This document shows positions 1 through 45,846 of a stretch of 64,000 bases of DNA, in pieces. The stretch's first letter is position 1. Each line of letters opens with the position of its first letter. A program made the translations under genes and the position numbers. The notes below the pieces were generated by a model. It worked only from the letters and a program-made list of their open reading frames with translations. It was not told where the DNA came from and searched no databases. Source of the stretch: Naegleria gruberi (Eukaryota); assembly GCA_000004985.1 (NCBI GenBank), contig GG738852.1, one strand, 5' to 3'.

Positions 1-416
1 ACTCACAACTTGTCAGAAAGAGATCCAATAATCGTTCCAAAAATCATACTACTAAAGAATCCAAATATAAACAACCTAGATATTGTCTCAATTTCATATC
101 CGTACGATTCATAGAGAACATATACATAGGCTCCTATTTTCATCACACACAATAATTTTGACAATTATTCAAAAAGTCGTCATCTTACCTTGAAGCCAAT
201 CACTAAAAGTCATACACAAATACACAACCAAATAATTATTTTGAAATTTTGCAAATGTATTCAATGTGCTCTGAGTGAGATTTGTTGTTGTTGACGATAA
301 AGTAGTAGTAGTAACATTCCGATTATAATAGCCAACACAATTCAGTAGTAAACAAATGACCAATAAAATACCATTGATGAGGAGAAGCATTTTTTGAAAG
401 TGAGGAAAATAAGAAA

Positions 417-430
417 TTGTGGCGGGAAAT
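417..430. promoter_or_regulatory. E2F-like GC box (TTGTGGCGGGAAAT) ~60 bp upstream of ATG 487
   Basis: Isolated GGCGGGAAA core in otherwise AT-rich spacer; matches E2F consensus TTTSGCGGGAAA; same motif recurs at 1685. Confidence 0.35.
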
Positions 431-486
431 ATGAAACTCTTTGGAATAATTATTAAATGTGATTAAAAATCAAACAATTGCTTATT

Positions 487-1593
487 ATGAAAAGGTGGAA
501 AATTGAATTAGTTGGGAAATTATTGAAAAAAATGATAAGTGGACAAGCTGTTGAAACTTTTTCTGATTCAATCGGAGTGAATTTTCTTCCCAGAGAAATT
601 GTCTTTGAAATTTTACAGTATTGCAATTGTATTGATATGATTCTTGCGTGCAGTAAAGTTTGTTGTGAGTGGAGAGAAGTGTCATTTGTATTGATTTCGG
701 ATCAGTGTAAAGATTTGATCAAGAAATTCAAGATTAAATTATTGAATGATTCTGATAGAAGTAATTTAGTCAGATATTTAATAAGAAGGGAGGTATTGAA
801 TCTTGCTCGCAAGACTATTTCAAAATTCAACCAAAATTCAATTGGAAATTATTTTGAAAATAGAGAGACGGAAATTACACAATTGAAAGGTTACTTTTCA
901 CAATTTACAGATTTGCCAAACAAGCTGGAAAATTCAACTATCAAACCAGAAAAACAAGAGAAGGTAGAATCTGATAGTAGTAATCAATTATTTGGGGCCT
1001 TCTCTCGATTTGTTTCAAGTTTCTTTTCAGATTCCAGAATTGATTCATCTACAAATGAGATACCTTTTAAAAGGAGAATTGTAAAAGTTTTAATGAAAGG
1101 AGCTCTCCTATCTGGAAAGACATCATTTATTAAGTGTTCAATAATGAAAAGACCTGTCGATGGAACTATTCGAAATTCAATTCTGCCAGATTTTGGCATG
1201 GTAGAGAGGCAGCTGGACAATGATTTGAGAATTACAACTCAATTATGGGATGAACATCGATACAACAAACCAACAGAATTTTCCAACGTGTTTGCTGTCA
1301 TATTAACCATCGATCCATATAATGTTATAACCCTTAATGAATTGAAAACTTTTATTGAGCCAATCAAAGAGAAACTGAATTCGACCATTGAAGTAATACT
1401 AGTACAGACCAAGAAGGATTTACAAAATGAACGAAATGAAAGAGTAAGATATCTTTCAGAAGAACCATTCGAACAATTTTCCTTTAGAAATTTCAGAGGT
1501 GGTTTATCACACAATATTTCCAACACTAACATTGAAGAACCATCTCTGATTCTTTGGTATTGTACCCTATTGAATTATCTCATGATGCCATAA
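487..1593 (+). CDS. F-box domain protein with C-terminal Ras-like small GTPase domain
   Basis: Track ORF 478..1593 begins with TTG; first ATG at 487 (MKRWKIE). N-terminal F-box (LPREIVFEILQYC...CCEWREV). C-terminal half has P-loop GALLSGKTS, a degenerate DxxGQ (LWDEH) and an NKxD-like TKKD. Confidence 0.55.
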   Translation: MKRWKIELVGKLLKKMISGQAVETFSDSIGVNFLPREIVFEILQYCNCIDMILACSKVCCEWREVSFVLISDQCKDLIKKFKIKLLNDSDRSNLVRYLIRREVLNLARKTISKFNQNSIGNYFENRETEITQLKGYFSQFTDLPNKLENSTIKPEKQEKVESDSSNQLFGAFSRFVSSFFSDSRIDSSTNEIPFKRRIVKVLMKGALLSGKTSFIKCSIMKRPVDGTIRNSILPDFGMVERQLDNDLRITTQLWDEHRYNKPTEFSNVFAVILTIDPYNVITLNELKTFIEPIKEKLNSTIEVILVQTKKDLQNERNERVRYLSEEPFEQFSFRNFRGGLSHNISNTNIEEPSLILWYCTLLNYLMMP

Positions 1594-1684
1594 CTTTTTC
1601 TCATTTCATTAATTAATTTATTCTCAATTAACTACGTATTTATATTATCAAAACAGAATCTTTGCTTTGAAAAAATGTAATAAT

Positions 1685-1697
1685 TTTTGGCGGGAAA
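1685..1697. promoter_or_regulatory. E2F-like site TTTTGGCGGGAAA 30 bp upstream of AAA-ATPase ATG
   Basis: Textbook E2F-type motif TTTGGCGGGAAA directly 5' of the ATG at 1726, in front of a katanin-like cell-cycle gene. Confidence 0.45.
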
Positions 1698-1725
1698 CAA
1701 GTCATTTAAAATTAGCCTTAAAAAA

Positions 1726-3777
1726 ATGCCTGAGGAATCCATCTACAAGAACAACTCATCTGGCATTGCTTCGATATTCTCAGCACATGCGGGTGGTAGT
1801 AATAATGTACAATCCATTCAACCAACGAGGGTTGCTTCGAGAGTAGGCTCTGCAAAAGCACCAACATCATCAGCGAATAGAACTCATACAACAACAACAT
1901 CGTCATCAGCAAGACAACCAGTAAAATCAAATAGAATCGGATCGACCTATGATAAGACCTTTCATAACAAGGTAGATAAGTTGGTGTCGGATCCAATTAG
2001 ACAAGTAACAGGGAGGAAGAATATTCTTGCTAAGGAAGGTGTAATGCCTACAAAACCAACTGATATTGAGAATAATGCTGTGCGAGGAACGGTGGCAAAA
2101 AAACTAGGAGTACAACCTAGTAGGAATAATAATCAAGCAAAACTTACAAGACCTGTTAATGGTGCTTTTGGAAAGGATCAGTGGGAAATTGAATGGGATG
2201 ATAAGGATGAGAAATCTGAAAACATTATACCAAAACAATCAAAACCTTCAAACAATTTATCTGGTGACATTAATAGTATAAATTGGATCGAGAGACTTGG
2301 AAGAGGTAAATGTTCTTCCATTTGTGATGTGAATGGAAGACCAGTTACTAGTATTGAATCGAGCTCTTCTCATTGGTATATTTTAACTTATGAGGAAAAA
2401 TCATTCTTAGACATTGAAACCGAGGATTTTAACATTACCACTTCAATCAAAATTCAAAAAGGAAATGAAAACAGTTTATTTACTATCGTCCTTGACTATG
2501 GAATCAACAAGAGGTGCAAGGATGAGTACATTGCCATTGTAATGAACGTAGCCCAGAAATATTGGAAGATTGAACGAGTGGAAAATAAGAAAGTGGTACC
2601 AGTGCAACAGGCAATAGATAAGAGCTTGGCTCCTCTCAAATATATGGATATTTCTATATCTTTATCTGAGAGAAAGCTCACACTCAAAAACGATAATACT
2701 GAAATATTTACTGATGTTATTCTTCCAATATCTTCGGAAGGCTCTAAGGAGAGACGAGTTGGTCTTGGAGTCATGTCAGCCAAAGTTTCAATTTATGATT
2801 GGACAGTATTTGATCCAAAGACTCAAGAAAAGGAGGAAGATCTTCCGATTGCAGAGAGACCCCTACCTGATTACATTGACAAACACTTGGCTGAAATGAT
2901 AAAGAGAGATATTATAGAATTCAATCCAAATGTGACTTGGGAAAGTATTGCAGAATTGCACGATGCAAAGAGGCTTTTGAAGGAGGCAGTTGTACTTCCT
3001 CTCCTTATGCCTGACATTTTTGCTGGTTTACGATCTCCTTGGAAGGGAGTTCTGCTGTTTGGTCCACCTGGAACTGGTAAGACGATGGTTGCAAGGGCTG
3101 TGGCAACAGAAGGAAAGACCACTTTTTTCAATTGTAGTGCTTCCACTCTGGTTTCGAAATACCACGGAGAGTCTGAAAGATTGGTCAAGACACTTTTCCA
3201 AATGGCCAGATTGTTTAGTCCGAGTACAATTTTCTTTGATGAAATTGATGCCTTAATGATGACAAGAGGAAGCTCTTCAGAGCATGAAGCATCCAGAAGA
3301 CTTAAAAGCGAGATTTTGACCCAAATTGATGGTATCAATAGTCAAAGCAGTAGGGTCATGGTATTGGCAACGACGAACAAACCTTGGGATTTGGATGAGG
3401 CTATGAGAAGAAGACTAGAAAAGAGAATTTACATCCCTCTACCATATGAAAAAACAAGAGTATCCCTCTTTAATATTTTTTTAAAAGATCAAGAGATGGA
3501 AAGTGATGTTTCCACTGAGAGTCTTGCTGTCTTAACAGATGGATACAGTGGTGCAGACATTCATTTATTGTGTAGAGAGGCTGCTCTCAGACCACTGAGG
3601 AAGGAGCTTGATCATAGGTCAACTGAGGAAATTATGAAGTTGAAAGAACGAGGAGAGTTGAAACTCAGTCTCTGTATGGAAGATTTCTCAGAGTCAGTCA
3701 AAACAATGAAACCAAGCGTTTCTCAAAACGAAATTGAAAAGTATCAACAGTGGATGAAGGAATTCCAAAGTGTATAG
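1726..3777 (+). CDS. Meiotic-clade AAA ATPase (katanin p60 / fidgetin-like)
   Basis: Track ORF starts at TTG 1687; first ATG 1726 (MPEESIYK). Walker A GPPGTGKT and Walker B IFFDEID are present. The C-terminal ...EKYQQWMKEFQSV tail is typical of katanin/spastin/fidgetin. The ~400-aa S/T-rich N-terminus is low complexity. Confidence 0.8.
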   Translation: MPEESIYKNNSSGIASIFSAHAGGSNNVQSIQPTRVASRVGSAKAPTSSANRTHTTTTSSSARQPVKSNRIGSTYDKTFHNKVDKLVSDPIRQVTGRKNILAKEGVMPTKPTDIENNAVRGTVAKKLGVQPSRNNNQAKLTRPVNGAFGKDQWEIEWDDKDEKSENIIPKQSKPSNNLSGDINSINWIERLGRGKCSSICDVNGRPVTSIESSSSHWYILTYEEKSFLDIETEDFNITTSIKIQKGNENSLFTIVLDYGINKRCKDEYIAIVMNVAQKYWKIERVENKKVVPVQQAIDKSLAPLKYMDISISLSERKLTLKNDNTEIFTDVILPISSEGSKERRVGLGVMSAKVSIYDWTVFDPKTQEKEEDLPIAERPLPDYIDKHLAEMIKRDIIEFNPNVTWESIAELHDAKRLLKEAVVLPLLMPDIFAGLRSPWKGVLLFGPPGTGKTMVARAVATEGKTTFFNCSASTLVSKYHGESERLVKTLFQMARLFSPSTIFFDEIDALMMTRGSSSEHEASRRLKSEILTQIDGINSQSSRVMVLATTNKPWDLDEAMRRRLEKRIYIPLPYEKTRVSLFNIFLKDQEMESDVSTESLAVLTDGYSGADIHLLCREAALRPLRKELDHRSTEEIMKLKERGELKLSLCMEDFSESVKTMKPSVSQNEIEKYQQWMKEFQSV

Positions 3778-3790
3778 AATGAATAAATTA

Positions 3791-5242
3791 TTAAAATGTT
3801 TTCAATTCGAGATCAAAATATCCAGCTTCATCATTTTGATTTCTAACATCTTCATCATTGATACTGACAATGATTATAGAATGGCCATCGCAAAATACGC
3901 CTCTCACAGAACTATGTGGGAATGTGGCTTTTCCTGGAACTAATTTTTTGATCCATTTTGAAACTTCACCTATTTTAGAAGTGGTTTGAGCTTGTTCTTT
4001 GGTTTCGGTTGGTTCAGGTTTTTCTTCAATGATATCCTGATGTTCTATAATTTCAAAACTGTCTGCCCCATCAATGGTTTCTCTTAAATTGTCGGCTGGA
4101 ATGGTTTCATTTTCTGAAATGTTGTAATTAGAAGTGGTATTTAAAGTTTCCTTCTCCTTAGCTTCCAATTTGTTACCATTCTTCTTATTTACAACACTGG
4201 CTACACTTGCTATTGCTGGAGCAGAAGCTATTGTAGCTGTTGATAATCCACCTCCAACAACCAATGCTGCTCCACCTCCAATCAATCCCACACCTGTCAA
4301 AACTCCAGAAGCAATTCCAACACCAACAGCAACACTACCACAAACAGTTCCAATAATTGGTAGTGCTTTATCCCATGTTGTCAGTTGCTTGTGTTTGGAT
4401 GTATGCAATTTTCCAACTTCAACAGTGAAATGAACTCGTCCAACACCCTCGAATATCCCCATTCTATTTGGTGGTATAAGTAATTGATAGAGAGGACCTA
4501 CTTGAGACAATATTACATTGATGGGATGTTGTGTCCTATTGTCAATTAAAAGTGATCCTCCAAGAGCACCATTCATATAGAGCTTTCTAATAATGAGTGG
4601 TGTATGTATTATATTTGTTGAGAAATGAGGATATGTTTTTAATAATCGAGTCCAATAGATAAAATCCTGATTATTCATGTTGATAATTTCTTCCTCTTCC
4701 TCCGTTAAATTATTTACATCGAGCACCGAATCAGATACTTGAAATATTTGATGGTGTTCAAAATCATCATCGTTAGCAGTTGACACTGGCAAGCTTTCAA
4801 CAGTCACAATTTCAATATCATCATCATCATCCGAATCATCAATATCATTCATATTTACAATATAATTAGATCGTGGATCAAATATTTTGTGATTCTTTCC
4901 ATCCAAATAGTGTTTCCTCACATGTTCTCTACATAGAGCCAACTCACAATCTCCACAATAATAATTCGTTGGTATAATAGCATTCTGTTCATGAAGACAA
5001 ACATCACACGTTGGAAAGGCAAACCTTGCTGGAGCAATTGTTGTGGGCGATAGAGATTCTGTCATTGGACGAAAGGCTATTGTTGTCTGTTCTCCATCAC
5101 CATCACCAATTAATTCATGATTCGGATCGTTGGGTAAATGATTATCATCCGTATTGTCACCTCCCATCAATGTATTGGTTGCATTCTTGATGCTCCCGAA
5201 AAAACTTCCAACAAATGAATTGTTCAAGGTTGAAAAGACCAT
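3791..5242 (-). CDS. Hypothetical protein with B-box-type zinc finger and glycine-zipper TM segment
   Basis: ATG verified (atggtcttttc). Has a CDVCLHEQ...YYCGDCELALCREHVRKH Cys/His cluster, an acidic D/E tract, and a G/A/V-rich GxxxG repeat hydrophobic segment. Confidence 0.5.
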   Translation of the reverse strand: MVFSTLNNSFVGSFFGSIKNATNTLMGGDNTDDNHLPNDPNHELIGDGDGEQTTIAFRPMTESLSPTTIAPARFAFPTCDVCLHEQNAIIPTNYYCGDCELALCREHVRKHYLDGKNHKIFDPRSNYIVNMNDIDDSDDDDDIEIVTVESLPVSTANDDDFEHHQIFQVSDSVLDVNNLTEEEEEIINMNNQDFIYWTRLLKTYPHFSTNIIHTPLIIRKLYMNGALGGSLLIDNRTQHPINVILSQVGPLYQLLIPPNRMGIFEGVGRVHFTVEVGKLHTSKHKQLTTWDKALPIIGTVCGSVAVGVGIASGVLTGVGLIGGGAALVVGGGLSTATIASAPAIASVASVVNKKNGNKLEAKEKETLNTTSNYNISENETIPADNLRETIDGADSFEIIEHQDIIEEKPEPTETKEQAQTTSKIGEVSKWIKKLVPGKATFPHSSVRGVFCDGHSIIIVSINDEDVRNQNDEAGYFDLELKTF

Positions 5243-5278
5243 TTTTTTGATTTTTTTTTAAAAATAGAGCTAATAATG

Positions 5279-5290
5279 TTGGCGCCAAAA
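5279..5290. promoter_or_regulatory. Palindromic E2F-like site TTGGCGCCAAAA in divergent promoter
   Basis: Lies between the minus gene starting at 5242 and the plus gene starting at 5353. Matches the high-affinity palindromic E2F site TTTGGCGCCAAA. Confidence 0.4.
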
Positions 5291-5352
5291 TTTTGTTCCA
5301 ACAAGCATTCGAATTCATTTTTTAAAAAAACCGTTTAATATTATTTAAAAAA

Positions 5353-7062
5353 ATGAGTGAATTGAAGGGAGTGCTTTCTTTTGCTTTTGATCGAATATTT
5401 GGATTGGGAGCAGAACCTTCCGAATCAAACTCTATCGGAGGTGATGGTGATGAATTAATGGAAGGAAGGGATGGTGTACAAAATGGAATTTTAAAGGCAA
5501 CATCACCCATTCATAAAATTCTCACCATTGATGCTGGTTCTTCTAAATTCAAGACTTGTTTTTTCGATTTGGAGAAGAAGGATGCATTTAGATGTGATGA
5601 AGCTAGTTCGGATAGGAAGGCCATGTATACTACGGTGGCTTTGATATTTAGCTTACTGGATTCGTCTGTGAAGAGGATACAAGTTGTTAATCAGGCCTAT
5701 CCTCTTTCGCATCATGTTTCGTTGAATAGAGGAGAGGCATATGTATTCTTTTATAATTGGAAAAATTTAGTCTTTCCAATATCTGATATGATAAATGAAC
5801 GAAAGTCACCCTCTCCTTCTAAAAAGGATTTGACCTATTGTGATGAAAAGACACTATTAATTGGATCAGAGAATATAGAAATTTCTGCAGAGGGAGTTTA
5901 TGTACGAGTTAACAAGGCACATGTGGAAAAAGCAAGATTATTTACTGGAAATTTGCCATTTGTTCTCGAGACTGGGGATAAGATTCTCTTCTCTAAGGAG
6001 GACATTGTTAGGGAACTGTTTCAATATTGTATATATTCACATGCACAATTACCTAATGGTGTGTCAGTTAGCGATTGCTATATATTTGCTTCGATACCTT
6101 CTAAGGTTTTATTTAGAGAAAGAGAAATGCTTCGTGATATTATTAAGAATGTATCCAAGACTGAAAATGTACATTTAGTGAAAGAAGCTGTAGCTCTTTG
6201 TTATTATTTCTACTATTCCTATAATAGAAATGAACAGTTTGAGATAAAGAAGGAAAATGCACCTAAAGCAGTCGCAATTGATATTGGACATTACAGCTCT
6301 GATATTGCTGTTATGGAACTTGTTGATGAGAATAGTATTCGCATGAATAGTGCTTATTGTCTTTATCATGGTGGGCATAAGTTAACCATAGATTTGCTTA
6401 ACATAATGAAGACCCAAGAGCAAGTTGGTACATTGAAGAATAATGAGGAGGAATTCTGGAAGGAAGTCTCAAAAACCAATGAATGTAAAGAAACCATATT
6501 CAATTTAGATACAAAGTGGAACAAGGAGGGAAACTATGAATCTGGTCAGGATGGATGTATTATTGACAATATTTTCCTACCAATTGACTCTATCAAATTA
6601 ATGATGGAAATGAATTTTTCAGATGTCATAGAGACAGCCAAGAAATTAGTGGTGGAGAACTCCAGTCAATATTTAATTTTAGGAGGACCTGTTTCAAAAA
6701 CAAAGCTATTCAGAAATTATATTAGAGGAGTTTTAGGATCAATGTGTGAAATTGTATTCACCAAGAACTTGTTTGATATTTGTATTGGAACTTTTCTGTA
6801 TGCTTGCAATAGAATTTCTCAACCTTTGAATTTTATTTCCTCTCAATCAACCACCTCAGATACTAGTGTACTTTCATCACCCTCATCTGTCAAGTTCACT
6901 AACCTTTCTCCAATTGACCATGTATTTCTTTTCACTGCTAAAGCAATTGTTTGTACAAAAGTTCCAGAGTATATCAACAAGAGATTTAGAGGAATAAGTC
7001 GTGAAATGTACAATCAAATGATTGAAGATAGTAGGTATTTGTTTTTATTTAATAGATTATAA
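5353..7062 (+). CDS. Hypothetical protein with weak actin/Hsp70-like ATPase-fold motifs
   Basis: ATG start. 569 aa. AVAIDIGHYSSDIAV resembles a phosphate-1 motif and LILGGPVSKTKLFRNYIRGVLG an adenosine motif. This is inference only. Confidence 0.4.
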   Translation: MSELKGVLSFAFDRIFGLGAEPSESNSIGGDGDELMEGRDGVQNGILKATSPIHKILTIDAGSSKFKTCFFDLEKKDAFRCDEASSDRKAMYTTVALIFSLLDSSVKRIQVVNQAYPLSHHVSLNRGEAYVFFYNWKNLVFPISDMINERKSPSPSKKDLTYCDEKTLLIGSENIEISAEGVYVRVNKAHVEKARLFTGNLPFVLETGDKILFSKEDIVRELFQYCIYSHAQLPNGVSVSDCYIFASIPSKVLFREREMLRDIIKNVSKTENVHLVKEAVALCYYFYYSYNRNEQFEIKKENAPKAVAIDIGHYSSDIAVMELVDENSIRMNSAYCLYHGGHKLTIDLLNIMKTQEQVGTLKNNEEEFWKEVSKTNECKETIFNLDTKWNKEGNYESGQDGCIIDNIFLPIDSIKLMMEMNFSDVIETAKKLVVENSSQYLILGGPVSKTKLFRNYIRGVLGSMCEIVFTKNLFDICIGTFLYACNRISQPLNFISSQSTTSDTSVLSSPSSVKFTNLSPIDHVFLFTAKAIVCTKVPEYINKRFRGISREMYNQMIEDSRYLFLFNRL

Positions 7063-7107
7063 TGAATCATTAAAGTATATGGATTGGAAAAGACTAAACG
7101 ATTGAAC

Positions 7108-8037
7108 ATGTACAATCTCGAAGACAAGAATGTTCTTGATATTGATACAAGACAAGAAAGACCAACACGCCCAATAGTTTCTTACTTTTCACTTGAGGGA
7201 GATCAGGAGTATATCGACATTGAGATTTACAATGCCACTCTTGAAGAGAGCTCAATTCTCAAATACAAACGGGATATGGCTGTTAAAGGATTTTATTTCG
7301 ATCCAAAATATCAACGTAATTACAGGAGAATTTACACAGAGAGAGGAGCAGAAATATTCGGTTTACAAGAAATGAATTTTGTGAGGAGAGTTAAAATTGT
7401 TGGATTTCCAAAATTCAATCAAAAGAAGAGAAAAATCAAGAAACTAATGGAAACTTGGGGTCATAGTAAGGATGAAATTGATTTTTGTTTGGCAAGTTGC
7501 CGATTCGATTATCAAATTGATAGTGATGACAACCTGATAATACAAGTTTCAAATTTGATTGAAGCGATCAATTTTAATCCAATTGAAATTCACACCAGTT
7601 CAATGATCCCTTGTAACATTTCAGATGCACTCTCAGAGGAAGTTCAGGATAAATTCGAACAAATAGAAGAATTAGTTGTCAATATTGATTTAAAGGATGA
7701 TGTTATTGAATATTTGGAAAAATCCAAGTCAGTCTCTGCTTTGAGATTTTCTGGAAGAGCAAATGGGAAAACACTCAGAACCAGAGGTTTGGATATTCTT
7801 GCCCTGTTGAATGATATGAGTTCTACGACAAGTGAAGCTCCAGGAGAACCCCAACTCGACGAAGCAGAATCAGATCATCAAGACAATAAGAGAGGTCGAG
7901 ATGAATTTGAAGATGAAGATGTTTACAATACATCTCCACCAAGGAAGTGTAGTCCTCCACAAAAGCCCTCTCCACCACTCATTACAAAATCAGTAACATT
8001 TCGAACACAAGAGCAAATAGAAGAGTATTTTGACTGA
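7108..8037 (+). CDS. Hypothetical protein
   Basis: Track ORF 7084 starts at TTG; first ATG 7108 (MYNLEDKN). Acidic S/P-rich C-terminus. No recognised domain. Confidence 0.4.
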   Translation: MYNLEDKNVLDIDTRQERPTRPIVSYFSLEGDQEYIDIEIYNATLEESSILKYKRDMAVKGFYFDPKYQRNYRRIYTERGAEIFGLQEMNFVRRVKIVGFPKFNQKKRKIKKLMETWGHSKDEIDFCLASCRFDYQIDSDDNLIIQVSNLIEAINFNPIEIHTSSMIPCNISDALSEEVQDKFEQIEELVVNIDLKDDVIEYLEKSKSVSALRFSGRANGKTLRTRGLDILALLNDMSSTTSEAPGEPQLDEAESDHQDNKRGRDEFEDEDVYNTSPPRKCSPPQKPSPPLITKSVTFRTQEQIEEYFD

Positions 8038-8170
8038 TTGAACGTCTAAATTTGGAAAATTACCATTGCATATAATCTCAAAATGTTAAATTCCAAATCT
8101 GTCCGAGGGAACATATAACCATGCTAACCTTGTCAGAATATGGAAAATAAGCAAAAACAAAAAGAAAGAC

Positions 8171-9979
8171 ATGAAACGAATCAATAACAAGGTTATCTTT
8201 CTAATAGCTACTGTAATTGTAGCTTTGCTTGCATTAGGAGTTTCCGTCTCCTTGCAACAACAAGTATCTGCTCAAGCAGGTGCCCAAGCTAGTAGTAGTG
8301 GTGCTTCTGTTAATGCTGGAGGCCAAGCCAGTGCTGGAAATCAGAATAACACTCAAGGTGGTGGACAAGGGCAAGGACAAGGACAGCAACAAGGTGGCAC
8401 ACAAGGACAGAACAATACATCTACTCAAGAGTTGAACAAGTTTTTGAATCGTATTGATACTGATTTGAGAATGATTGGAAGCTTTATTGATAGATGTGCA
8501 GGTTTGCAGCAACAAGGCCCAGGTGGTCAACAAGGTGGTCAACCAGGTGGTCCTGGACAAGGACAATTTGGTCAACCAGGCGGACAAGGTGGAATGCCAC
8601 AACAACCTCAACCAATTCAAGACCAAGGACCTCCAACTCAACAACAACAACCTGAATCTATGTGGTATTCAATGTTGGGAATGATTGGCTTACAACAATC
8701 TCCTCAACCACAACTTTCTGCCCAACAACAATTCCCACAACCTTCTCCTCAACCACAGCAATCACCAGCTCAAGCTCAGCAATCACCACAACCTCAACAA
8801 TCACCGGTTCAAGCCCAACCATCTCCACAACCACAGCAATCACCAGCCCAACCTCAACAATCACCACAACCTCAACAATCACCAGTTCAAGCCCAACCTT
8901 CTCCACAACCTTCTACAGTTGGAGCTGGTGCTGGTAGTCAAGAAACTAGACAACAAATTGCTTGTGGAATTGTTACCAAGGCTGCCACTAACTTGTTGAA
9001 TAATACCATGAGTTTAGTTTCCACTGTTAGTAACAATACCCAAATCAGCTCATCACTCAAGCAAGCTGTTGCTCAATTGCTTATTAAGGCAAATTTATTG
9101 TCTTCCAATGCCAAGAATTCAAGTTGGACCAATTTCCTTACCTCATTTGATCAATATGCTGTTAGTTTCTCAGCCTTGCAACAATCTCTCTCCAGACGTC
9201 AACAACAAGGCGGCCAACAAGGAGGACAAGGACAACAAGGCGGCCAACAAGGTGGCCAACAACAAGGTGGTCAAGGACAGCAAGGTGGTCAATTCGGTCC
9301 TCCACAACAAGGTGGTCAACAAGGACAATTTGTGCCACCTCAACAACAAGGTGGTCAACAAGGTCAATTCGGTCAGGGACAACAACAAGGCGGTCAACAA
9401 GGCCAATTCCCTCCACAACAAGGTCAAGATCAACAACAATATTCCTATCCACAACAAGGTGGTCAACAAGGTCAACAATATCCACAACAGCCTTATCAAG
9501 GACAATATGGTCAAGGACAACAAGGAGGTCAACAACAATATCCACAACAGCCTTATCAAGGGCAACAACAATATGGTCAAGCAGGCCAATATGGTCAACA
9601 AGATCAATATGGTCAAGGTCAACAAGGTGGACAACAATATGGTCAACAGTATCCTTACCAAGGACAACAAGGAGGTCAACAACAATATGGCCAAGGTGGA
9701 CAACAATATGGTCAACAAGATCAATACGGTCAAGGACAAAGTCAATACGGTCAACAATATCCACAACAGCCTTATCAAGGTCAACAAGGACAAAGTCAAT
9801 ACGGTCAAGGACAACAAGGAGGTCAACAACAATATCAACCACAGTATCCAACACCTTTCTACCAAAATCCATACCAATACAGAAATCCATACTTTTACCA
9901 AAGCCCAAGTTATCAATACTATCAACCACCACAACAACAACAACAATATGAAGGCTATTATCCAGAATATTATTACTAA
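8171..9979 (+). CDS. Secreted Q/G/P/Y-rich low-complexity (prion-like) protein
   Basis: N-terminal signal/TM (VIFLIATVIVALLALGVSVS). Followed by degenerate repeats QQGGQQGQF, SPQPQQSPAQ and QYGQGQQGGQQQYPQQPYQGQ. Ends in a Y/P-rich tail. Confidence 0.55.
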   Translation: MKRINNKVIFLIATVIVALLALGVSVSLQQQVSAQAGAQASSSGASVNAGGQASAGNQNNTQGGGQGQGQGQQQGGTQGQNNTSTQELNKFLNRIDTDLRMIGSFIDRCAGLQQQGPGGQQGGQPGGPGQGQFGQPGGQGGMPQQPQPIQDQGPPTQQQQPESMWYSMLGMIGLQQSPQPQLSAQQQFPQPSPQPQQSPAQAQQSPQPQQSPVQAQPSPQPQQSPAQPQQSPQPQQSPVQAQPSPQPSTVGAGAGSQETRQQIACGIVTKAATNLLNNTMSLVSTVSNNTQISSSLKQAVAQLLIKANLLSSNAKNSSWTNFLTSFDQYAVSFSALQQSLSRRQQQGGQQGGQGQQGGQQGGQQQGGQGQQGGQFGPPQQGGQQGQFVPPQQQGGQQGQFGQGQQQGGQQGQFPPQQGQDQQQYSYPQQGGQQGQQYPQQPYQGQYGQGQQGGQQQYPQQPYQGQQQYGQAGQYGQQDQYGQGQQGGQQYGQQYPYQGQQGGQQQYGQGGQQYGQQDQYGQGQSQYGQQYPQQPYQGQQGQSQYGQGQQGGQQQYQPQYPTPFYQNPYQYRNPYFYQSPSYQYYQPPQQQQQYEGYYPEYYY

Positions 9980-10047
9980 ACTAATTGTGAGAAACTAACT
10001 GTACATATTATATACATCTCGTGAGATTAATAAAACTATTTATATAT

Positions 10048-12441
10048 TTACAAATGTCTAAGCTCGTTTGCTTTGATTCTATCATTAGGCTGACACCTTA
10101 ACATTAGGAGAATCATATCAATTGTGTAATTGTCGCATTTATGTCGCTTTGAACGTTTCAAATTCTTCTCTAGCAATTCATGAACACTTTCTTCCAAAGC
10201 AATCTGCACAGAACCATCCCTTACCAACATGGATGCAATTTGAGTTTTCTAATATAATGTCAAACGAAATGATTAAAAAAAAACACTTACAAAATCACCA
10301 GTCAATACTTGATAAAGAGTACAACCTAATGACCAAATATCTGTTGCTTGTGACAATTCTCCCTTTCCACACAATAACTCAGGAGCAAGGAAAAGTTCAG
10401 TTCCTCTCAATCCAGCTTTCGTATTCAATTGAGAATTGGTTTGTTTTGATTGTTGAATAGAGGACGAATTTGGTGAATGCTTGGTAGATTCTCCAAAATC
10501 ACCAATAATTACATGAACCCAATCATTCGCCAAATTGATTTCATCTAGGAATATATTAGTTGGCTTCAAATCATTATGAGTAATAAACTTGACTTCATGC
10601 AAATGGAAGAGAGCATCAGCCAACTGTTGAATTAGAGTTAACATGAGCTTTTTCGAGAAGACAAATTCAGGATGTTTCTCCACAAATGACTTTAAATCGC
10701 CATGTTTGTAATACTGCATTACAAAACAAACTGATTGCAGTAGTGGACTTGGGAAAACATCAAGAACTTGAATAATATGTGGATGTTTGCATTCAATCAT
10801 TCTCATACCTTCCTCTCTAACAGCAGCAACTCTCTGCTCATCAATGTAATGCTCAATCCTAATTGACTTGATGGCTACTTGTGTATTGCTCTTCTCATCG
10901 AGAGCCAAGTAGACATTAGCAAAAGAACCTCTACCAATTAACTTTTCAACCACGTAACGATCTTTAAGTCTGTGATCTGCCTGAAGAGTATAATCTTCAT
11001 CCTCATAACAATCATTATCTGTTCCATCTTCACAAATGGAATCCCTTCGAATGACATTATTCTCAAGTGCTTGAGACTTGTAACTCTCTATTATACTACT
11101 GGCAACATATTCTACTTCACTGGCTCTTCTTAGATGATCATTCTGATCGGTCATATATGGCATTGCATCCACATTTTTCAGATCTTCTCTCTTCTCTGGT
11201 ATGACCACTGTTGGTCGATTTGCAGTCTTGAAACTTGTCTTGATAACTGAAGTATTTTCCTGGAGTGGTGAGGTCATTTGGAGAGATCTCTGTAAAAAGC
11301 TTGATTTGAGTGAGGTAATTTTATCCTCAATGTGTGGACTCTTCTTATCGAAATTAGAGTGCATATTGAATGTACTTGTACTGGATTGAGCAAGTTGTTG
11401 TGGTGGCTTTGGATTTTCAATGTCTTCCTCAATGGAAATCAGAGTTGGATTGTTGCTCAATGTTTGTTGTTGTTCGCTGTGATCCATCATGACAACTGGT
11501 GCATAGGTATTGGAAGGCTCCTTATCCTTCTTTTGCTTCTTTCTAAAACATGACATGACGATCAACAATATGGCTATGATAAGAATGGAAGCCAGAATGA
11601 AAAGTCCAACACCAATCATTCCTGCAATGAGTGCTGATTGATCGACAGTACTTGCCTTGGAGTTTCTCAAAATTTGAACAGAGTATGTGCATGATTCACT
11701 CAGACAACCACTCATCAAGACGACCACATAAATTGTTGCCTGTGGATAGTTAGCATTCTCAATTGGGAGAGTAAAGTTAGATTCCTTCTGAGTAAAGATC
11801 AATCTTTTCTGATAATCATAATTGCCGTTTGGTGTTGCCTTCTTGTTAATACCCACAAACACATCGACATATTCGGTTTTATCAGAGGGAGGTCTTGCAA
11901 TTTGTAAGGTAAATGTATCAGTGGCAAAATTAATACTCGAATCGGAGAAACAATTTGGACAAAAGTAATAATCAGAAAGGAGAGCAGGTGTGGTATAATT
12001 ATTTCCAACTCCCAAACTCAAATACTTGTACAATTGTAAAATGTTGAATTTTGTAAACTCCAAGCTAGAAGCAAGAGGATTGTGAATGACGAGAGAATAA
12101 TCAGTATCATGCTTTGAGAAAGCATAATCTGATTTTGAATAATCTGTTGTACCTGTATCGATAAGGGAAATGATAGAAGTATCTCTTGTTCTATTGAATG
12201 TTGTCAAATTATTCGAAGGCATGTAGCCAATCAAGTATCCTGCAAGGTTGGTTTGAAATTCAAACTTCCAATTACCGTAACCAAAGGGAAATGAAAAATA
12301 ATTATTCGAAGAGAGGCCATAAATTGTGTTTTGTTGTTGAAAACTTGGGTTGACCAAAAGTAATAGACAACCAAGCAAAACAAGAGCCAACAGTGAAGAA
12401 TTGACGATTTGGTGGCGATGAGGATTGATTCTCTTGATCAT
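10048..12441 (-). CDS. Receptor-like Ser/Thr protein kinase (signal peptide, ectodomain, 1 TM, kinase); 2 exons
   Basis: join(12441..10291,10248..10048). ATG verified. Signal peptide plus ~300-aa ectodomain, TM IAGMIGVGLFILASILIIAILLIV, and kinase motifs GRGSFANVY, HNDLKPTNIFL, DFG, APE. Exon 1 ends GAT TTT|GTAAGT. A 42-nt intron runs to ttag. Exon 2 (KTQIAS MLVRDG...DRIKANELRHL) is in frame. An alternative 93-nt acceptor (tgcag) is not excluded. Confidence 0.7.
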
Positions 12442-12648
12442 TGAAACAATTTTTTGAAATAAAGTATTTCCAATTTCATCAACTACCCATATTTCATATT
12501 AATTAATTGTTTGGTATGAAAGAGAACACAACCAAAGTCCATATATAGAAATTTTCAAAATCTTTCCATTTTCCCTAAAGGAATGATTTATAAATTTCAA
12601 AATTATTGTAAATTGAGACCAATAGATATACTCACCATTTTAGATTTA

Positions 12649-13755
12649 TTAGTCCTCCTTGGTATCATCCACATCTACTTTCATTGTTACTAATGTAATA
12701 ATTAAATTAGTTATGGAACCAAATATTAAACCAACTGTGGTGCATATTGGGAAATATTGCCAGTCCTTTTCCCAATCGAGAGGAATGACAAATCCACTAA
12801 TCCAAATACAAATTAAATGCACCAAAAGGAAGGTTCTTAATGGGCTAACTGGTTTCAAATTGAATGAAATTGATCTGACTCGAGCAGTTTTTTCCAATAC
12901 AACCAAATTAATATATTCCTTAATATTATTCCACTGCAATAAAGTTGCCATTGGTTGAACAAATATAACCAAACTCGAGAGAATGCACCACACAATGCAA
13001 CACTTGATTTCATCAATTGAGAATATGTGACATTTGGAAAATAATGAAAAGACATAATGATCCTCCGAGTTCAAAATACTTGCTGGAATATTCTTTGCAC
13101 AAATCCAATTATTGTTCAATTGCTGATTATTCATTGGTGTTTGTTCAACATCACTCCTTGCCGATTGGAAATTATTCGACGAAGGTATTCTCATGAATGG
13201 TGTAAATCCAAAGAGAGTGACTCCCACGTAGATTAAACAAGCTCCTCCAAACAACACTCCAAAATATCGGACCATCATTTGCACAAGCAACCCTGAAGGA
13301 GACAATTGCTCATCACCATCATTCCTTTTGTTAGATTCTCTTCCTTTAAATATATTACTACTAAATGTAAAGAGAAGATAGATGGGAATTAATATGAAAA
13401 TTAATAGGAGCATGATTTCAAAGTAGAAGGCTCGCACAAGGAAGGATTCAACAATTTCTTCTCCCATCATCATTAAAACTCCATAAATTATAAAAACAAG
13501 ACACGTAATGATTTGACCAATTAAAAATCGATAATTGGCATTTCCTATAAAACTCTTCAAGGCTGATGATGATTCTGTATTTGTTGTGCTACTAGATTGT
13601 GTATTGTTTACCAAATTTCTTTTTCTTTCCGATAGAGTTTGATTGAGTTGATGTGGATGCATTTTCTTTGAAAATTTAAACAACAAAATTCCTGCAAGAT
13701 GGATAATAACATTTGCTGTTGTTAAAATAATATTTTCATTATTATTTTGTCTCAT
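12649..13755 (-). CDS. Multi-pass transmembrane protein of unknown function
   Basis: Track ORF starts at TTG 13848; first ATG 13755 (MRQNNNEN). At least 7 hydrophobic segments. A possible 15-nt 5' micro-exon (13829..13815, MAPTW) would be joined by a 47-nt GTAATT..TTACAG intron. Low confidence. Confidence 0.5.
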   Translation of the reverse strand: MRQNNNENIILTTANVIIHLAGILLFKFSKKMHPHQLNQTLSERKRNLVNNTQSSSTTNTESSSALKSFIGNANYRFLIGQIITCLVFIIYGVLMMMGEEIVESFLVRAFYFEIMLLLIFILIPIYLLFTFSSNIFKGRESNKRNDGDEQLSPSGLLVQMMVRYFGVLFGGACLIYVGVTLFGFTPFMRIPSSNNFQSARSDVEQTPMNNQQLNNNWICAKNIPASILNSEDHYVFSLFSKCHIFSIDEIKCCIVWCILSSLVIFVQPMATLLQWNNIKEYINLVVLEKTARVRSISFNLKPVSPLRTFLLVHLICIWISGFVIPLDWEKDWQYFPICTTVGLIFGSITNLIITLVTMKVDVDDTKED

Positions 13756-13819
13756 ATTATAATACTCCTGTAAGTATTGTCTGATTACTATTTCCAAGCA
13801 CAAGTTGAAATTACCCAAG

Positions 13820-13845
13820 TTGGCGCCATTTTTTATTCCGCCAAA
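13820..13845. promoter_or_regulatory. Paired E2F-like sites (TTGGCGCC ... TTCCGCCAAA) in MCM promoter
   Basis: GC-rich motifs 70–90 bp upstream of the MCM ATG (13913), in the divergent spacer. MCM genes are canonical E2F targets. The first motif overlaps a possible ATG of the upstream minus gene. Confidence 0.4.
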
Positions 13846-13912
13846 CAACTCTTTTCAAATTTAAAAAAAATGTTTTCTGGTAATGATGATGAATCGGTGT
13901 TAGATTCTTTCG

Positions 13913-15991
13913 ATGGAAGACTTTCAGGTAATCGATGATGATGAGGATGGTGAAAGACAAAGTGCACACCAACCTCAACCTCACAGAAGTTCTATTGGGG
14001 GTGGGCAGATAGCGACACTTTCTTCTTCATCAAATTCTATTGTGGATCCCGCAGCCATCAAGACATCATTTTCTCTCTTTTTACAGAACAATGTATTTCC
14101 TTCACAACAAATAACGGAAAGTATTGATTTGACAAATACATTTAGATTGGACGCAGCTCTCTTGAAACAACATGATGTTAAATTGTACAATATTTTGGTA
14201 CAATTTCCAGAGACTGTCATTTCTATTTTCGACGTTGTTATGGCCGAAGAGTGGCATAAACTCAAAGGAGATGAAGCTCAAATTTCTATTACTGTTAATT
14301 TGGATACACTTAAACCAATGAGAGCTTTGAATCCTTGCGATATCGATAGACTTGTTGGAATTCAAGGAATGGTGACTAGATTGAGTGAAATTATTCCAGA
14401 TATGAGAGGAGCTTATTTCAAGTGTTCTGGTTGCAGTGCCTCAAAATATGTCCCTCTTCAACAGGGAAGAGTTAAAGAACCACCAAAATGTACAAGTGAC
14501 ACTTGTTCTGGTTCCACTTGGATTTTAATACACAACAGATGTCAATACTATGATAAACAAGTTATCAAATTGCAAGAAACTCCAGAAAGCATTCCTGAAG
14601 GTGAAACTCCACATACTGTCAATTTGTGTGTTTTTGATAGTCTTACCGATAGTGTTAAACCTGGTGACAGAGTTAAAGTAACTGCAATTTATAGAGCCAT
14701 CCCAATCAGAATCAGTTCCAAACAAAGAAAAGTTAAGAATATTTTCAAAACATATCTAGACGTGTTGGGTTTCGAAAAGATTGGTATCAGTGTTATGAAT
14801 GCAGAACTAACTACTGCGGCAGCCAAAAGTTCATCCTCTCTGGATGATGCCAACGAAGATGAACAACTCTCCAAATTAATGAATATTACTCCATTAGAAG
14901 AAGCAGAAATCAAGCTTCTCTCTGAAAATCCTAATATTTATCAAATGTTACAAGACTCTATTGCACCTGGTGTGTTTGAAATGACCAGTGTTAAAAAGGG
15001 AATACTTTGTCAATTATTTGGAGGTACCAATAAGAAAATACCGAATGGTCAACTGAGAGGAGAAATTCACATTTTACTTTGTGGTGATCCTGGTGTGAGT
15101 AAGTCGCAACTTTTGATACAGGTACACAAAATTGCACCAAGAGGAATTTATACATCAGGTAAAGGAAGTTCAGCTGTTGGTTTGACAGCCTATGTCACTA
15201 AAGATCCTGATTCAGGTGATATGGTTTTAGAATCAGGGGCCCTTGTATTGTCTGATCTTGGTATTTGTTGTATTGACGAATTTGACAAAATGTCTGATCA
15301 AACTAGATCTGTTCTCCACGAAGTCATGGAACAATGTACAGTATCAGTAGCCAAAGCTGGTATTATTTGTACCCTTAATGCTAGAACCTCAATTTTGGCA
15401 GCTGCCAACCCTAAAGAATCTAGATACAACTCCAATCTTTCAATTGTTGAAAATATCCAACTTCCACCTACCCTTTTATCCCGTTTTGATTTAATCTTCC
15501 TTCTTCATGATACTCCAGATAGAGATAGTGACGAAAAGCTAGCCAAACACATTATTTCGCTTCACTTTGATGTTCCAGAACACGACACCTCAACACTGAT
15601 ACCAAAGGAATTATTAGCAAAATATATTGCCTATGCCAGAAATCGTATACATCCTGTCATTACAGATGATGTGAAACACTATTTAGTTGAAGGTTATTTG
15701 GGTCTAAGAAAGTTTGGATCACATAAGAAGAATATCACAGCAACAACCCGTCAGCTCGAATCTCTTATTCGTTTATCTGAAAGTCTTGCCCGTATGAAAC
15801 TGAAACAAAAAGTAGAAAGAGATGACGTAGAAGAGGCAATGAGGCTTGTGAGAGAGTCCATTTTCAAAGCTGCCTTTGATCCAAAGACAGGAACAATTGA
15901 TATAGATCTGTTGCAAACTGGTCGTTCTGCTGCAGACAGAGAATTAAACGATGATGACACTATGGGACTCGACAGAGAAGATGATATGTAA
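13913..15991 (+). CDS. MCM-family replicative helicase (MCM2-9 family; paralog unresolved, MCM8/MCM4-like)
   Basis: Zn-finger CSGCS...CTSDTC. Walker A GDPGVSKSQLL. MCM box CIDEFDKM...VSVAKAGI...ARTSILAAANP. Arginine finger SRFDLIFLL. Winged-helix-like C-terminus. Confidence 0.85.
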   Translation: MEDFQVIDDDEDGERQSAHQPQPHRSSIGGGQIATLSSSSNSIVDPAAIKTSFSLFLQNNVFPSQQITESIDLTNTFRLDAALLKQHDVKLYNILVQFPETVISIFDVVMAEEWHKLKGDEAQISITVNLDTLKPMRALNPCDIDRLVGIQGMVTRLSEIIPDMRGAYFKCSGCSASKYVPLQQGRVKEPPKCTSDTCSGSTWILIHNRCQYYDKQVIKLQETPESIPEGETPHTVNLCVFDSLTDSVKPGDRVKVTAIYRAIPIRISSKQRKVKNIFKTYLDVLGFEKIGISVMNAELTTAAAKSSSSLDDANEDEQLSKLMNITPLEEAEIKLLSENPNIYQMLQDSIAPGVFEMTSVKKGILCQLFGGTNKKIPNGQLRGEIHILLCGDPGVSKSQLLIQVHKIAPRGIYTSGKGSSAVGLTAYVTKDPDSGDMVLESGALVLSDLGICCIDEFDKMSDQTRSVLHEVMEQCTVSVAKAGIICTLNARTSILAAANPKESRYNSNLSIVENIQLPPTLLSRFDLIFLLHDTPDRDSDEKLAKHIISLHFDVPEHDTSTLIPKELLAKYIAYARNRIHPVITDDVKHYLVEGYLGLRKFGSHKKNITATTRQLESLIRLSESLARMKLKQKVERDDVEEAMRLVRESIFKAAFDPKTGTIDIDLLQTGRSAADRELNDDDTMGLDREDDM

Positions 15992-19887: not shown

Positions 19888-21204
19888 TTATTGTTGTTCA
19901 CGACCTCTCTTCTTTTGTTCAAAGACTTGCTTAATGCTTTCTGAAATCTTCAAGTGTTCTGGCTTGGAGAATTTGACAAGCAAGTAATTCTTATCAGCAG
20001 TCTTTCTACCACTTTCAAAGGTTGGTGTACTGCAGAAACATTTCATAAAGTAGTAAACTTGTTTAGCACATGGTAAAATATCATCTTCAGTCTTTCCAGA
20101 GTAATAGACCAAGTTGGAATTCCACTTGTCACCACCACATTTTCTGAGTGATCTGGCAACATAAATGGCAGCACAAGCAATGGTACTTGGTGTATAATTC
20201 AACATGGCTGTATCGTAGAGGGACATTTCAGCAACAAAGGTTGCAATTTGGACTTGAACATTATCAAAGTTACCACTACACTTCAAGTATCTCTTCAAAA
20301 AGACATAGACACTAGCAATAGTCAAGTTAAAGTCGAGAGTCTTCAAGATGAGTCTTTCCATAATGAGGATATCTTCCTTGGTATAGGCCTTACGAGTCAT
20401 CTTGATAAGATGAGAAGTATTGAGTGGTTTGATTTCTTCATACTTTGAAGCAATGAACAATGAGGTAATGGCAACCAAGTGAATCTTATCCAAAGCCATA
20501 TCTGGATGGGAGCTCAAGAATCTATCAAAAATGTTAACACAGAGATACATAGTTTCAGGTGAGAATTCATAATAACCATGAATGGTCATCAACCAATTGA
20601 TAGTCAACAATCTGGTTTGATCATTAAAGTTTGGATGTCTGGACATGTAGGTTGGATCCGGCAAATACTTGGACTCAATTGACTTGTAGTGAGCAAAAAT
20701 ATCCTTAACATATTCAGTACAGGCAAGTGAATTGTTAGTATCATTGGCATCAATCTTTGGACTCATCATCATGGATTCAGAGTTAGTCTTCCTCACTGGA
20801 GAGGTATATAAAGTTTCCTTTTGTGTCTTTTGATTAGTTTGCAAGACGACTGAATTATTAGTTGTAGTTGTGGTGGTTGATGGAGCAGTTGATCTAGCAC
20901 TCAATGGTTGCTTTTGAGTCATAAGACCAGTTGTAGTATTTTGAATGCTACTAGTCTTGATATTAGAAATATCACCCAAAGCACGTCTATTAGCAGCTGT
21001 ATTCATGGTTGAGGTTGGTGCTTGGAATTGCTTGGCAGAAAAGGCAGTCGATGTGGTTGTTGTCTGTTGACCATAGGAAACCAAATTTCTCTTATGACCA
21101 TCGATGGCCATATTATTCAAGGAGGTTGAGAGTTGATTCTCTGTATCAATCATCATGGAATTTTGATTGTACATATCGGATTGGAAAGTATTGGAGCCGA
21201 ACAT
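19888..21204 (-). CDS. Mitotic (A/B-type) cyclin with destruction box
   Basis: ATG verified. D-box RRALGDISN near the N-terminus. Cyclin box LLTINWLMTIHGYYEF...KYEEI, plus the second cyclin fold. Confidence 0.85.
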   Translation of the reverse strand: MFGSNTFQSDMYNQNSMMIDTENQLSTSLNNMAIDGHKRNLVSYGQQTTTTSTAFSAKQFQAPTSTMNTAANRRALGDISNIKTSSIQNTTTGLMTQKQPLSARSTAPSTTTTTTNNSVVLQTNQKTQKETLYTSPVRKTNSESMMMSPKIDANDTNNSLACTEYVKDIFAHYKSIESKYLPDPTYMSRHPNFNDQTRLLTINWLMTIHGYYEFSPETMYLCVNIFDRFLSSHPDMALDKIHLVAITSLFIASKYEEIKPLNTSHLIKMTRKAYTKEDILIMERLILKTLDFNLTIASVYVFLKRYLKCSGNFDNVQVQIATFVAEMSLYDTAMLNYTPSTIACAAIYVARSLRKCGGDKWNSNLVYYSGKTEDDILPCAKQVYYFMKCFCSTPTFESGRKTADKNYLLVKFSKPEHLKISESIKQVFEQKKRGREQQ

Positions 21205-21645
21205 TTTAGGTTAGGAACAATGTATTCTTCTTGTTGATTATGTAATTTGTTGGCAACAATATTATCTACGGAAGATTGTTGTCGAGATAATTTTTTAAAG
21301 ATGATTTTTTGAAAATTTGGCTGTTATTTTGCTTTTAATTAATTTTTAAAAAATTTGTGTAACGGCTATGATTTCTCTTTTCGTTACAGATTGTTTACAA
21401 AACGTAACTGTTTTTGGATCCTATTTAGGCGAGTGCTTGGTGATTGAAGAAGATGATGAGAACCTTGTTGAAGTTGCACTAACGTCGTTATTCAAAGATG
21501 AAGATTTTATTAAATTGTCTTTTTTCACATTTTCAATTATTCTTGAAACCAGACGCTACGTGTCTTATCTTTGCACAGAGTAGTGCTTGAAATTTTACAT
21601 GTTTGATTTGATCTTTCTAATAGACTCGACTTGTAGAAACCTCAC

Positions 21646-45654: not shown

Positions 45655-45832
45655 TTTTTTATGATTGTTTATTGAAGAACGTTGATGGATGACATGACAA
45701 GTTTTTATCTACAGTTTGATTTTTCTTAAATCTTCTGATTGAAACTTTCCTTAAAACTTATTTCTCCCTAACAAACGTTTTTTCAAAATTATCATCACTT
45801 CAAGGTAACAACAACAATTTTCAAACTACAAT

Positions 45833-45846
45833 TTTGGCGGTCAAAT
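45833..45846. promoter_or_regulatory. E2F-like motif TTTTGGCGGTCAAA in divergent promoter
   Basis: GC box in the AT-rich spacer between the TerD/C2 gene (start 45654, minus) and the kelch gene (start 46068, plus). Weaker match than the other sites. Confidence 0.25.

Follow-up and report, generated by a model that had tools for sequence, protein, structure and literature searches.

Do the short GC-rich boxes that stand just upstream of several start codons in AT-rich DNA of Naegleria gruberi serve as sites for transcription factors of the E2F family? The question is raised by a 64-kb window of nuclear DNA on contig GG738852.1 (the window being the whole stretch analysed), in which such boxes precede, among others, the gene for the replicative helicase subunit MCM4. 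A previous sequence-only reading of the window had proposed that they mark an E2F/DP-driven S-phase regulon. Our results suggest that the boxes are probably functional sites for E2F-family factors, namely the single E2F/DP heterodimer and/or the atypical DEL (E2F7/8-like) protein. Comparison of orthologous promoters indicates that, across heterolobosean species, selection has maintained the sites at MCM4, in front of a katanin-like ATPase gene, and at the lineage-restricted gene 5353-7062. On the other hand, the label "S-phase" is weaker than the label "E2F site", because MCM4 was the sole replication gene seen and the other conserved targets are of other kinds.

The window has a GC content of 35%, and ATG-to-stop open reading frames (ORFs) make up about 78% of it, leaving spacers of 31% GC. 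Every motif claimed by the sequence-only reading was found in its place, and the boxes fit the E2F consensus and are confined to proximal promoters. Enrichment was assessed in the window and in approximately 173 kb of fetched loci. The strict motif TTTSSCGS occurs on either strand at eight positions of the window, six of them in 5 of the 37 spacers (14.3 kb) and two in coding sequence (49.7 kb), so that its density is about 10-fold higher in the spacers. In a first-order Markov simulation of the spacers the mean was 0.71, and none of the 400 runs reached six; the sites are strongly enriched in spacers. Relative to dinucleotide-preserving shuffles of the whole window, TTTSGCGS was found five times (0.9 expected), TGGCGCCA twice (0.08 expected), and GGCGGGAA three times (0.2 expected). 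The location of the sites is more telling than these counts. Unbiased enumeration of over-represented spacer 7-mers ranked GGCGCCA third, and four of the nine SSCGSS hexamers (all G/C with a central CpG) in the window are promoter boxes. Within the window, GGCGCC is present only in the 5279-5290 site and the distal MCM4 site. A match to TTTGGCGC at 16908 lies within a coding region and was not counted as a promoter site. A shared origin from a repeat or transposon was rejected, as the flanks of the sites show no likeness beyond the motif itself. Four of the five E2F-bearing spacers fall within the first 14 kb, which holds about eight spacers, with the weak distal site at 45832 as the only one in the other 50 kb. 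This clustering in 1-14000 could reflect a local co-regulated gene group or chance; the grouping is not syntenic in other species.

The MCM ORF 13913-15991 is 100% identical to an N. gruberi protein whose best named relatives are MCM4, and the best 120 matches listed in a protein search with it were all MCM4 orthologues (identity 85% in N. lovaniensis, 84% in N. fowleri, 74% in Willaertia magna, and 58% in Acrasis kona). In N-terminal alignments, the orthologues (MISLSDNEE...) match the frame that starts with ATG 13870 (MFSGNDDES...) and not the one from ATG 13913. P0242, a 737-aa protein from a near-identical environmental contig, is continuous through the MCM4 N-terminus (...MFSGNDDESVLDSFDGRLSGNHDDEDGERQ, ...SGNHDDEDGERQ), while in the window an additional G at about 13934 (13930-13936) shifts the frame of this part. 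The broken frame is probably the reason why the reference model XP_002680720 is "partial" (602 aa); the extra G may be an assembly error or a strain polymorphism. Counted from the start at 13870, the distance of the paired sites upstream is 25-50 bp and not the 70-90 bp read before.

A strict site was found at MCM4 in five of six heterolobosean taxa. CCGCCAAA stands on the sense strand 32-50 bp before the ATG in N. gruberi (site TTCCGCCAAA), N. fowleri (AACCGCCAAAA), N. lovaniensis (GCCCGCCAAAA), an environmental Naegleria (TTCCCGCCAAAA), and Willaertia magna (TTCCCGCCAAAAAA). N. fowleri also has a distal site, ATGGCGGTC, with a spacing of about 15-16 bp as in the N. gruberi pair, and the environmental Naegleria has a second one, TTTCCCGG, 11 bp from the first. 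The MCM4 spacers cannot be aligned between species, and the gene order around them differs: the upstream neighbour is a tandem fatty-acid hydroxylase in N. fowleri, N. lovaniensis, and the environmental Naegleria, an unrelated divergent gene in Willaertia, and PIG-F in N. gruberi. The PIG-F-like gene is probably not the owner of the MCM4 sites and was rejected as such, since the site remains with MCM4 when the neighbour changes. The idea that the MCM promoter is an E2F target gains from this conservation without synteny in Naegleria, Willaertia, and the environmental Naegleria. Two further sites were noticed near these loci. In W. magna, the next gene downstream of MCM4 is uncharacterised (734 aa) and gave no Pfam or PDB match; AACCGCCAAAA (L004 12236-12243) stands 20 bp before it. 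N. fowleri (L001 1662-1669) and N. lovaniensis (L003 678-684) have in common a site CCCGCCAA(A/T), which stands in a divergent spacer on the upstream side of the histidyl-tRNA synthetase gene, about 200 bp away; these species are closely related, so its conservation carries little weight.

The product of the katanin-like gene is 100% identical to the N. gruberi "katanin p60 subunit". Three of the five katanin-like promoters compared carry a strict site and one more a relaxed one. At the N. fowleri locus, TTTCCCGC, 24-31 bp before the ATG, is the only strict TTTSSCGS in 22 kb, and the environmental heterolobosean gene has TTTTTGGCGC 26-35 bp upstream; the Acrasis promoter has the relaxed TTGGCGG at -33 to -39. 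Synteny of the katanin locus is not conserved between species, and its lack here and at MCM4 makes the footprints more convincing. Upstream of the environmental gene, a direct repeat of about 27 bp, CATTGCGCCAAAAA[C/T]ATTACAAAG (L012 15-42 and 240-267), doubles the E2F-like element, with the copies 225 bp apart. In A. kona, a NEK1-like kinase gene (L011 330-2933; PDB 4APC, E = 6 × 10−85) adjoins the katanin-like gene on its upstream side and has a perfect palindromic TTTTGGCGCCAAA (L011 300-311) 20-30 bp before its ATG. Thus, two neighbouring microtubule/cell-cycle genes of Acrasis both carry E2F-type sites.

The third conserved target is gene 5353-7062, which shares a divergent spacer with 3791-5242. 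Neither gene gave a match in Pfam at E ≤ 1 or in PDB by phmmer. For 5353-7062, only 3-5 homologues were found, all Naegleria-like (five relatives in an exhaustive hidden Markov model search). Its protein contains the motifs DxG, DxGxxxxD, and GGxS, and a remote relative, P0248, matches Pfam HSP70; AlphaFold2 modelling from a three-sequence alignment, aimed at the function of the uncharacterised gene, reached a pLDDT (predicted local distance difference test score) of 41. Two of three orthologous promoters have a strict site and the third a relaxed one. The environmental orthologue (L010) has a perfect TTTTGGCGGGAAA 16-28 bp before its ATG, and in N. lovaniensis (L009) the sole GGCGGG in 23 kb falls in the spacer between the 5353-7062 orthologue and a divergent XMAP215 gene. 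The neighbour changes in other species, and the E2F site remains with the 5353-7062 orthologue; no orthologue of 3791-5242 was seen beside the 5353-7062 orthologues. Cell-cycle regulation had been predicted for both genes of the spacer: the site-bearing orthologous promoters lend comparative support to this for 5353-7062, whereas none was found for 3791-5242. The XMAP215/TOG gene of L009 (3715-9830, minus strand) has the GGCGGG site (9863-9872) 33-42 bp upstream of its own ATG. In the N. lovaniensis model P0244 (951 aa), the 5353-7062 and 7108-8037 orthologues seem to have been fused. The exact 569-aa product of 5353-7062 is recorded only on an ENA metagenome contig and not in the NCBI N. gruberi protein set, so the gene may be unannotated or differently modelled in the reference.

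The cross-species comparison covered the promoters of MCM4, the katanin-like gene, and 5353-7062; the F-box gene, 3791-5242, and the 45832 site stood outside it. Gene maps were based on ORFs or automated calls, and some start codons, such as that of Acrasis MCM4, are our own judgement. The background rate of the strict 8-mer over 196 kb was 4.6 × 10−5 per bp, or 0.003 per 70-bp window. Strict sites were present in 10 of 14 target promoters and in about 3 of 86 other promoters of the same loci (Fisher p = 1.5 × 10−8). When N. gruberi was left out and the close relatives N. fowleri and N. lovaniensis were counted once, 6 of 10 targets had a site (p = 1.7 × 10−5), and the binomial chance of at least 6 of 10 such windows having one is about 2 × 10−13. 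Across the conserved promoters the sites lie about 20-65 bp upstream of the ATG. The 17 aligned sites give the consensus TTTTGGCG[G>C][G/T]AAA (TTTTGGCG[G/C]NAAA), which is that of E2F and not an Sp1 box. The features of the window are collected in Table 1.

Table 1. Candidate E2F sites and genes of the N. gruberi window (positions within the window).
Feature	Position	Strand	Remarks
E2F-like site TGTGGCGGGAAA	418-429	+	58 bp upstream of ATG 487
F-box and weak Ras-like GTPase gene	487-1593	+	Putative target; Pfam F-box E = 1.4 × 10−5
Perfect bidirectional E2F-type site TTTTGGCGGGAAA	1685-1697	+	28 bp before ATG 1726
Katanin-p60-like AAA ATPase XP_002680717	1726-3777	+	Pfam AAA, AAA_lid_3, Vps4_C
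Uncharacterised gene	3791-5242	-	On the divergent spacer
Palindromic E2F-type site TTGGCGCCAAAA	5279-5290		In the 110-bp divergent spacer 5243-5352
Naegleria-restricted ASKHA-like gene	5353-7062	+	Putative target; actin/Hsp70-like phosphate and adenosine motifs
Protein kinase gene	10273-12441		Pfam
PIG-F-like gene	12649-13755	-	Pfam PIG-F; other side of the MCM4 spacer
Distal MCM4 E2F-type site TTGGCGCC	13820-13827		TTGGCGCCA at 13820-13828
Proximal MCM4 E2F-type site TTCCGCCAAA	13836-13845	-	TTTGGCGGAA on the minus strand; 25-34 bp upstream of ATG 13870
MCM4 gene	13870-15991	+	Pfam MCM, MCM_OB, MCM_lid; long ORF from 13913
Weaker, more distal site TTTTGGCGG	45832-45840	+	Spacer between TerD/C2 gene and Kelch gene

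The factors that could read such sites are encoded in this genome, as the proposal of an E2F/DP-driven regulon implied. NgruE2F, NgruDP, NgruDEL, and NgruRB are listed, one each, in the source data of Medina et al. 2016 (PMC4862756), NgruRB in source data file 6. The DNA-binding domain of NgruE2F matches human E2F4 in the E2F4-DP2-DNA structure 1CF7 (chain A) with E = 7 × 10−25, and its RRXYD DNA-recognition helix is canonical, being identical to that of human E2F4. NgruDP matches Pfam DP and E2F_TDP, and the DEL protein has two DNA-binding domains. As E2F and DP are present and the recognition helix is identical, the factor and its specificity are expected to be conserved. In the mechanism that we propose, the factors would recognise a GGCG[G/C] core with a T-run on one side and an A-run on the other, 20-65 bp in front of the start codon; as the spacers are so short, this is probably where transcription starts or close to it. 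If the pocket protein of the RB family acts here as it does in animals, plants, and Dictyostelium, it would keep promoters bound by E2F/DP off outside the proliferative window, and phosphorylation of RB by a cyclin-dependent kinase would then release them. E2F binding, cell-cycle periodicity of the targets, and the role of RB as the regulator are what we infer from these data.

The atypical E2F7/8 (DEL) site consensus is TTCCCGCCAAAA, and the MCM4 sites of Willaertia and the environmental Naegleria match it exactly. The E2F8-DNA structure 4YO2 was also among the PDB matches in the search with the Naegleria factor. E2F/DP, DEL, or both as occupants of the sites are indistinguishable by sequence alone.

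Could the boxes be no more than short GC-rich words that arose by chance in AT-rich spacers? The motifs are only 8-12 bp long, and the whole-window count of TTTSGCGS was reached in 2 of 100 shuffles. However, no run of the spacer-restricted simulation attained the observed number, and the recurrence of the site at the same position in independent orthologous promoters has the very small binomial probability given above, so the chance reading is effectively refuted by the cross-species data. A functional, conserved element could also be read by a factor other than E2F, such as a C2H2 Sp/KLF-like GC-box protein or another CpG-recognising one, with the likeness to E2F being coincidental, and several sites do contain GGCGGG, which overlaps the GC-box core. 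We regard this as highly improbable, since TTGGCG and the A/T flanks are invariant over the 17 sites, a palindrome of the form TTGGCGCCAA is typical of E2F, MCM4 belongs to the canonical E2F targets, and the E2F recognition helix is the same as in human. An Sp1/KLF-type GC box was rejected, as its core is not conserved: neither the palindromic GGCGCC sites nor the proximal MCM4 sites of N. gruberi (TCCGCCAAA) and of N. fowleri (ACCGCCAAA) contain GGGCGG/CCGCCC.

A different doubt concerns what the sites do when bound by E2F-family factors, as they could act as a general or constitutive element, or as a broad mark of proliferation and mitosis, and not as a G1/S replication regulon. Besides MCM4, the conserved sites belong to genes for a katanin-like microtubule-severing ATPase and for a lineage-restricted protein, and the by-catch sites 20-40 bp upstream of the NEK1-like kinase (Acrasis) and XMAP215 (N. 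lovaniensis) are in line with this. In Cryptosporidium parvum, the identical variants DTTGSCGCCH and TTTGGCGGGAAV are without expression specificity: E2F-like motifs stand upstream of approximately 2,379 genes, which are spread over 163 of 200 expression clusters and share no profile, and no orthologue of RB was found there (Oberstaller et al. 2013, PMC3734150). In Dictyostelium, RblA represses 57 S-phase and 41 mitotic genes. On the other hand, the motif is sparse: it occurs in 5 of 37 window spacers (only one beyond 14 kb) and, among 86 other promoters of the fetched loci, in about 3, so it is not a general promoter element. In addition, RB is present in Naegleria, unlike in Cryptosporidium, and the B-type cyclin gene of the window (19888-21204, minus strand; Cyclin_N and Cyclin_C domains, D-box RRALGDISN) has no E2F site. 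On balance we consider this explanation rather unlikely.

Several points nevertheless weigh against reading the boxes as sites of an E2F-driven S-phase regulon. The Willaertia katanin promoter is without a site, at Acrasis MCM4 the equivalent place, ahead of what we judged to be the true ATG, holds only a degenerate TTTTAGCGCC, and the core columns of the site matrix are partly fixed by the search pattern. The ubiquity of the motif in Cryptosporidium means that an E2F motif alone is no proof of S-phase control, and MCM4 is the only canonical E2F target in the window. The other targets are the katanin-like ATPase, the ASKHA-like protein, and the F-box gene, with NEK1-like and XMAP215 as by-catch. 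Of the proposed E2F/DP S-phase regulon, the sites, their conservation, and the factors stand, whereas the regulon itself was extrapolated from a single replication gene. The targets other than MCM4 (katanin here; NEK and XMAP215 in relatives) suggest a wider proliferation and mitosis set. It is possible, and we offer it tentatively, that the heterolobosean E2F/RB module controls, beyond replication genes, also the microtubule machinery that is rebuilt at each Naegleria mitosis.

The putative Naegleria element shares its consensus, promoter-proximal position, and paired sites at an MCM gene with the G1/S elements (TTTSSCGC) of the E2F/DP-RB system of animals and plants, and N. gruberi likewise encodes E2F, DP, an atypical protein of the DEL/E2F7-8 type, and RB. 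Unlike those elements, the Naegleria sites are found in spacers 50-170 bp long, only 20-65 bp away from the ATG, belong to the Heterolobosea (Discoba), and have lineage-specific genes among their conserved targets. C. parvum resembles Naegleria in its AT-rich, compact protist genome and in the same two motif variants, but in Naegleria the motif is rare (approximately 4-14% of spacers). Dictyostelium, likewise an amoeba, has single E2F, DP, and Rb genes, and its Rb represses both S-phase genes and mitotic/microtubule genes such as clasp, eb1, and kinesins (Strasser et al. 2012, PMC3386910); thus, a mixed S-phase/mitotic regulon has a precedent. This regulon parallels MCM4 together with katanin, NEK, and XMAP215 in Naegleria and its relatives, although the Dictyostelium evidence comes from expression in an rblA knockout and that for Naegleria from conservation of a cis-element.

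Among the remaining genes of the window, the Ras match of 487-1593 (E = 3.3 × 10−4) is below the curated Pfam cut-off. The 45832 site lies 186 and 235 bp from the two flanking ATGs. The TerD domain of ORF 45220-45654 is also present in 41356-45165 (TerD and C2), and the two, spanning 41356-45654 on the minus strand, are probably exons of one gene with a short intron at about 45166-45219. No Pfam family was assigned to 3791-5242, 5353-7062, 7108-8037, or 8171-9979. The last of these has the highest GC of the window (0.42-0.43), the strongest strand skew, and overlapping ORFs on both strands, and the unit AACAAGGCGGCCAACA occurs in it at 9209 and again 30 bp further on at 9239; the stretch is probably a repeat-coding gene of low complexity. 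The cyclin promoter contains the Myb-type hexamers TAACGG (21360-21365) and TAACTG (21405-21410), 156-206 bp upstream of the ATG. They are reminiscent of the plant MSA (mitosis-specific activator)/3R-Myb G2/M elements and are so short that they may well be due to chance.

E2F, DP, and RB were already catalogued in N. gruberi (Medina et al. 2016), but in full-text searches of the literature on Naegleria E2F and Naegleria promoter motifs we found no description of such sites, nor any report of a defined promoter element in Heterolobosea. According to a 2025 review, it is not known which transcription factors act on the cilia genes of Naegleria (PMC12183034), and this katanin is not dealt with in the EMBO Reports paper on axoneme elimination. 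RNA-seq data exist for N. gruberi cultures brought into mitotic synchrony by heat shock (Kennard et al., PMC10802493). The element is apparently an undescribed, though expected, instance of the ancient E2F/RB switch, and will not surprise a cell-cycle specialist.

A canonical E2F site under apparent selection at MCM4 in Heterolobosea would have consequences both for the understanding of this lineage and for gene prediction. To our knowledge, the kinetoplastid relatives have lost gene-specific transcriptional control, which makes the heterolobosean lineage informative. TTTSSCGS within about 70 bp of an ATG may serve as a simple tag by which genes linked to proliferation, lineage-restricted genes among them, can be predicted in N. 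gruberi and in the pathogen N. fowleri, and the compact promoters (<120 bp) could be used as proliferation-specific drivers or reporters. If E2F control of the microtubule machinery were true, the E2F box at the katanin-like, NEK1-like, and XMAP215 genes would offer the first cis-regulatory access to the microtubule network specific to mitosis, and it would provide cis-level evidence from Discoba that the E2F regulon of the ancestral eukaryote already joined S-phase and mitotic genes.

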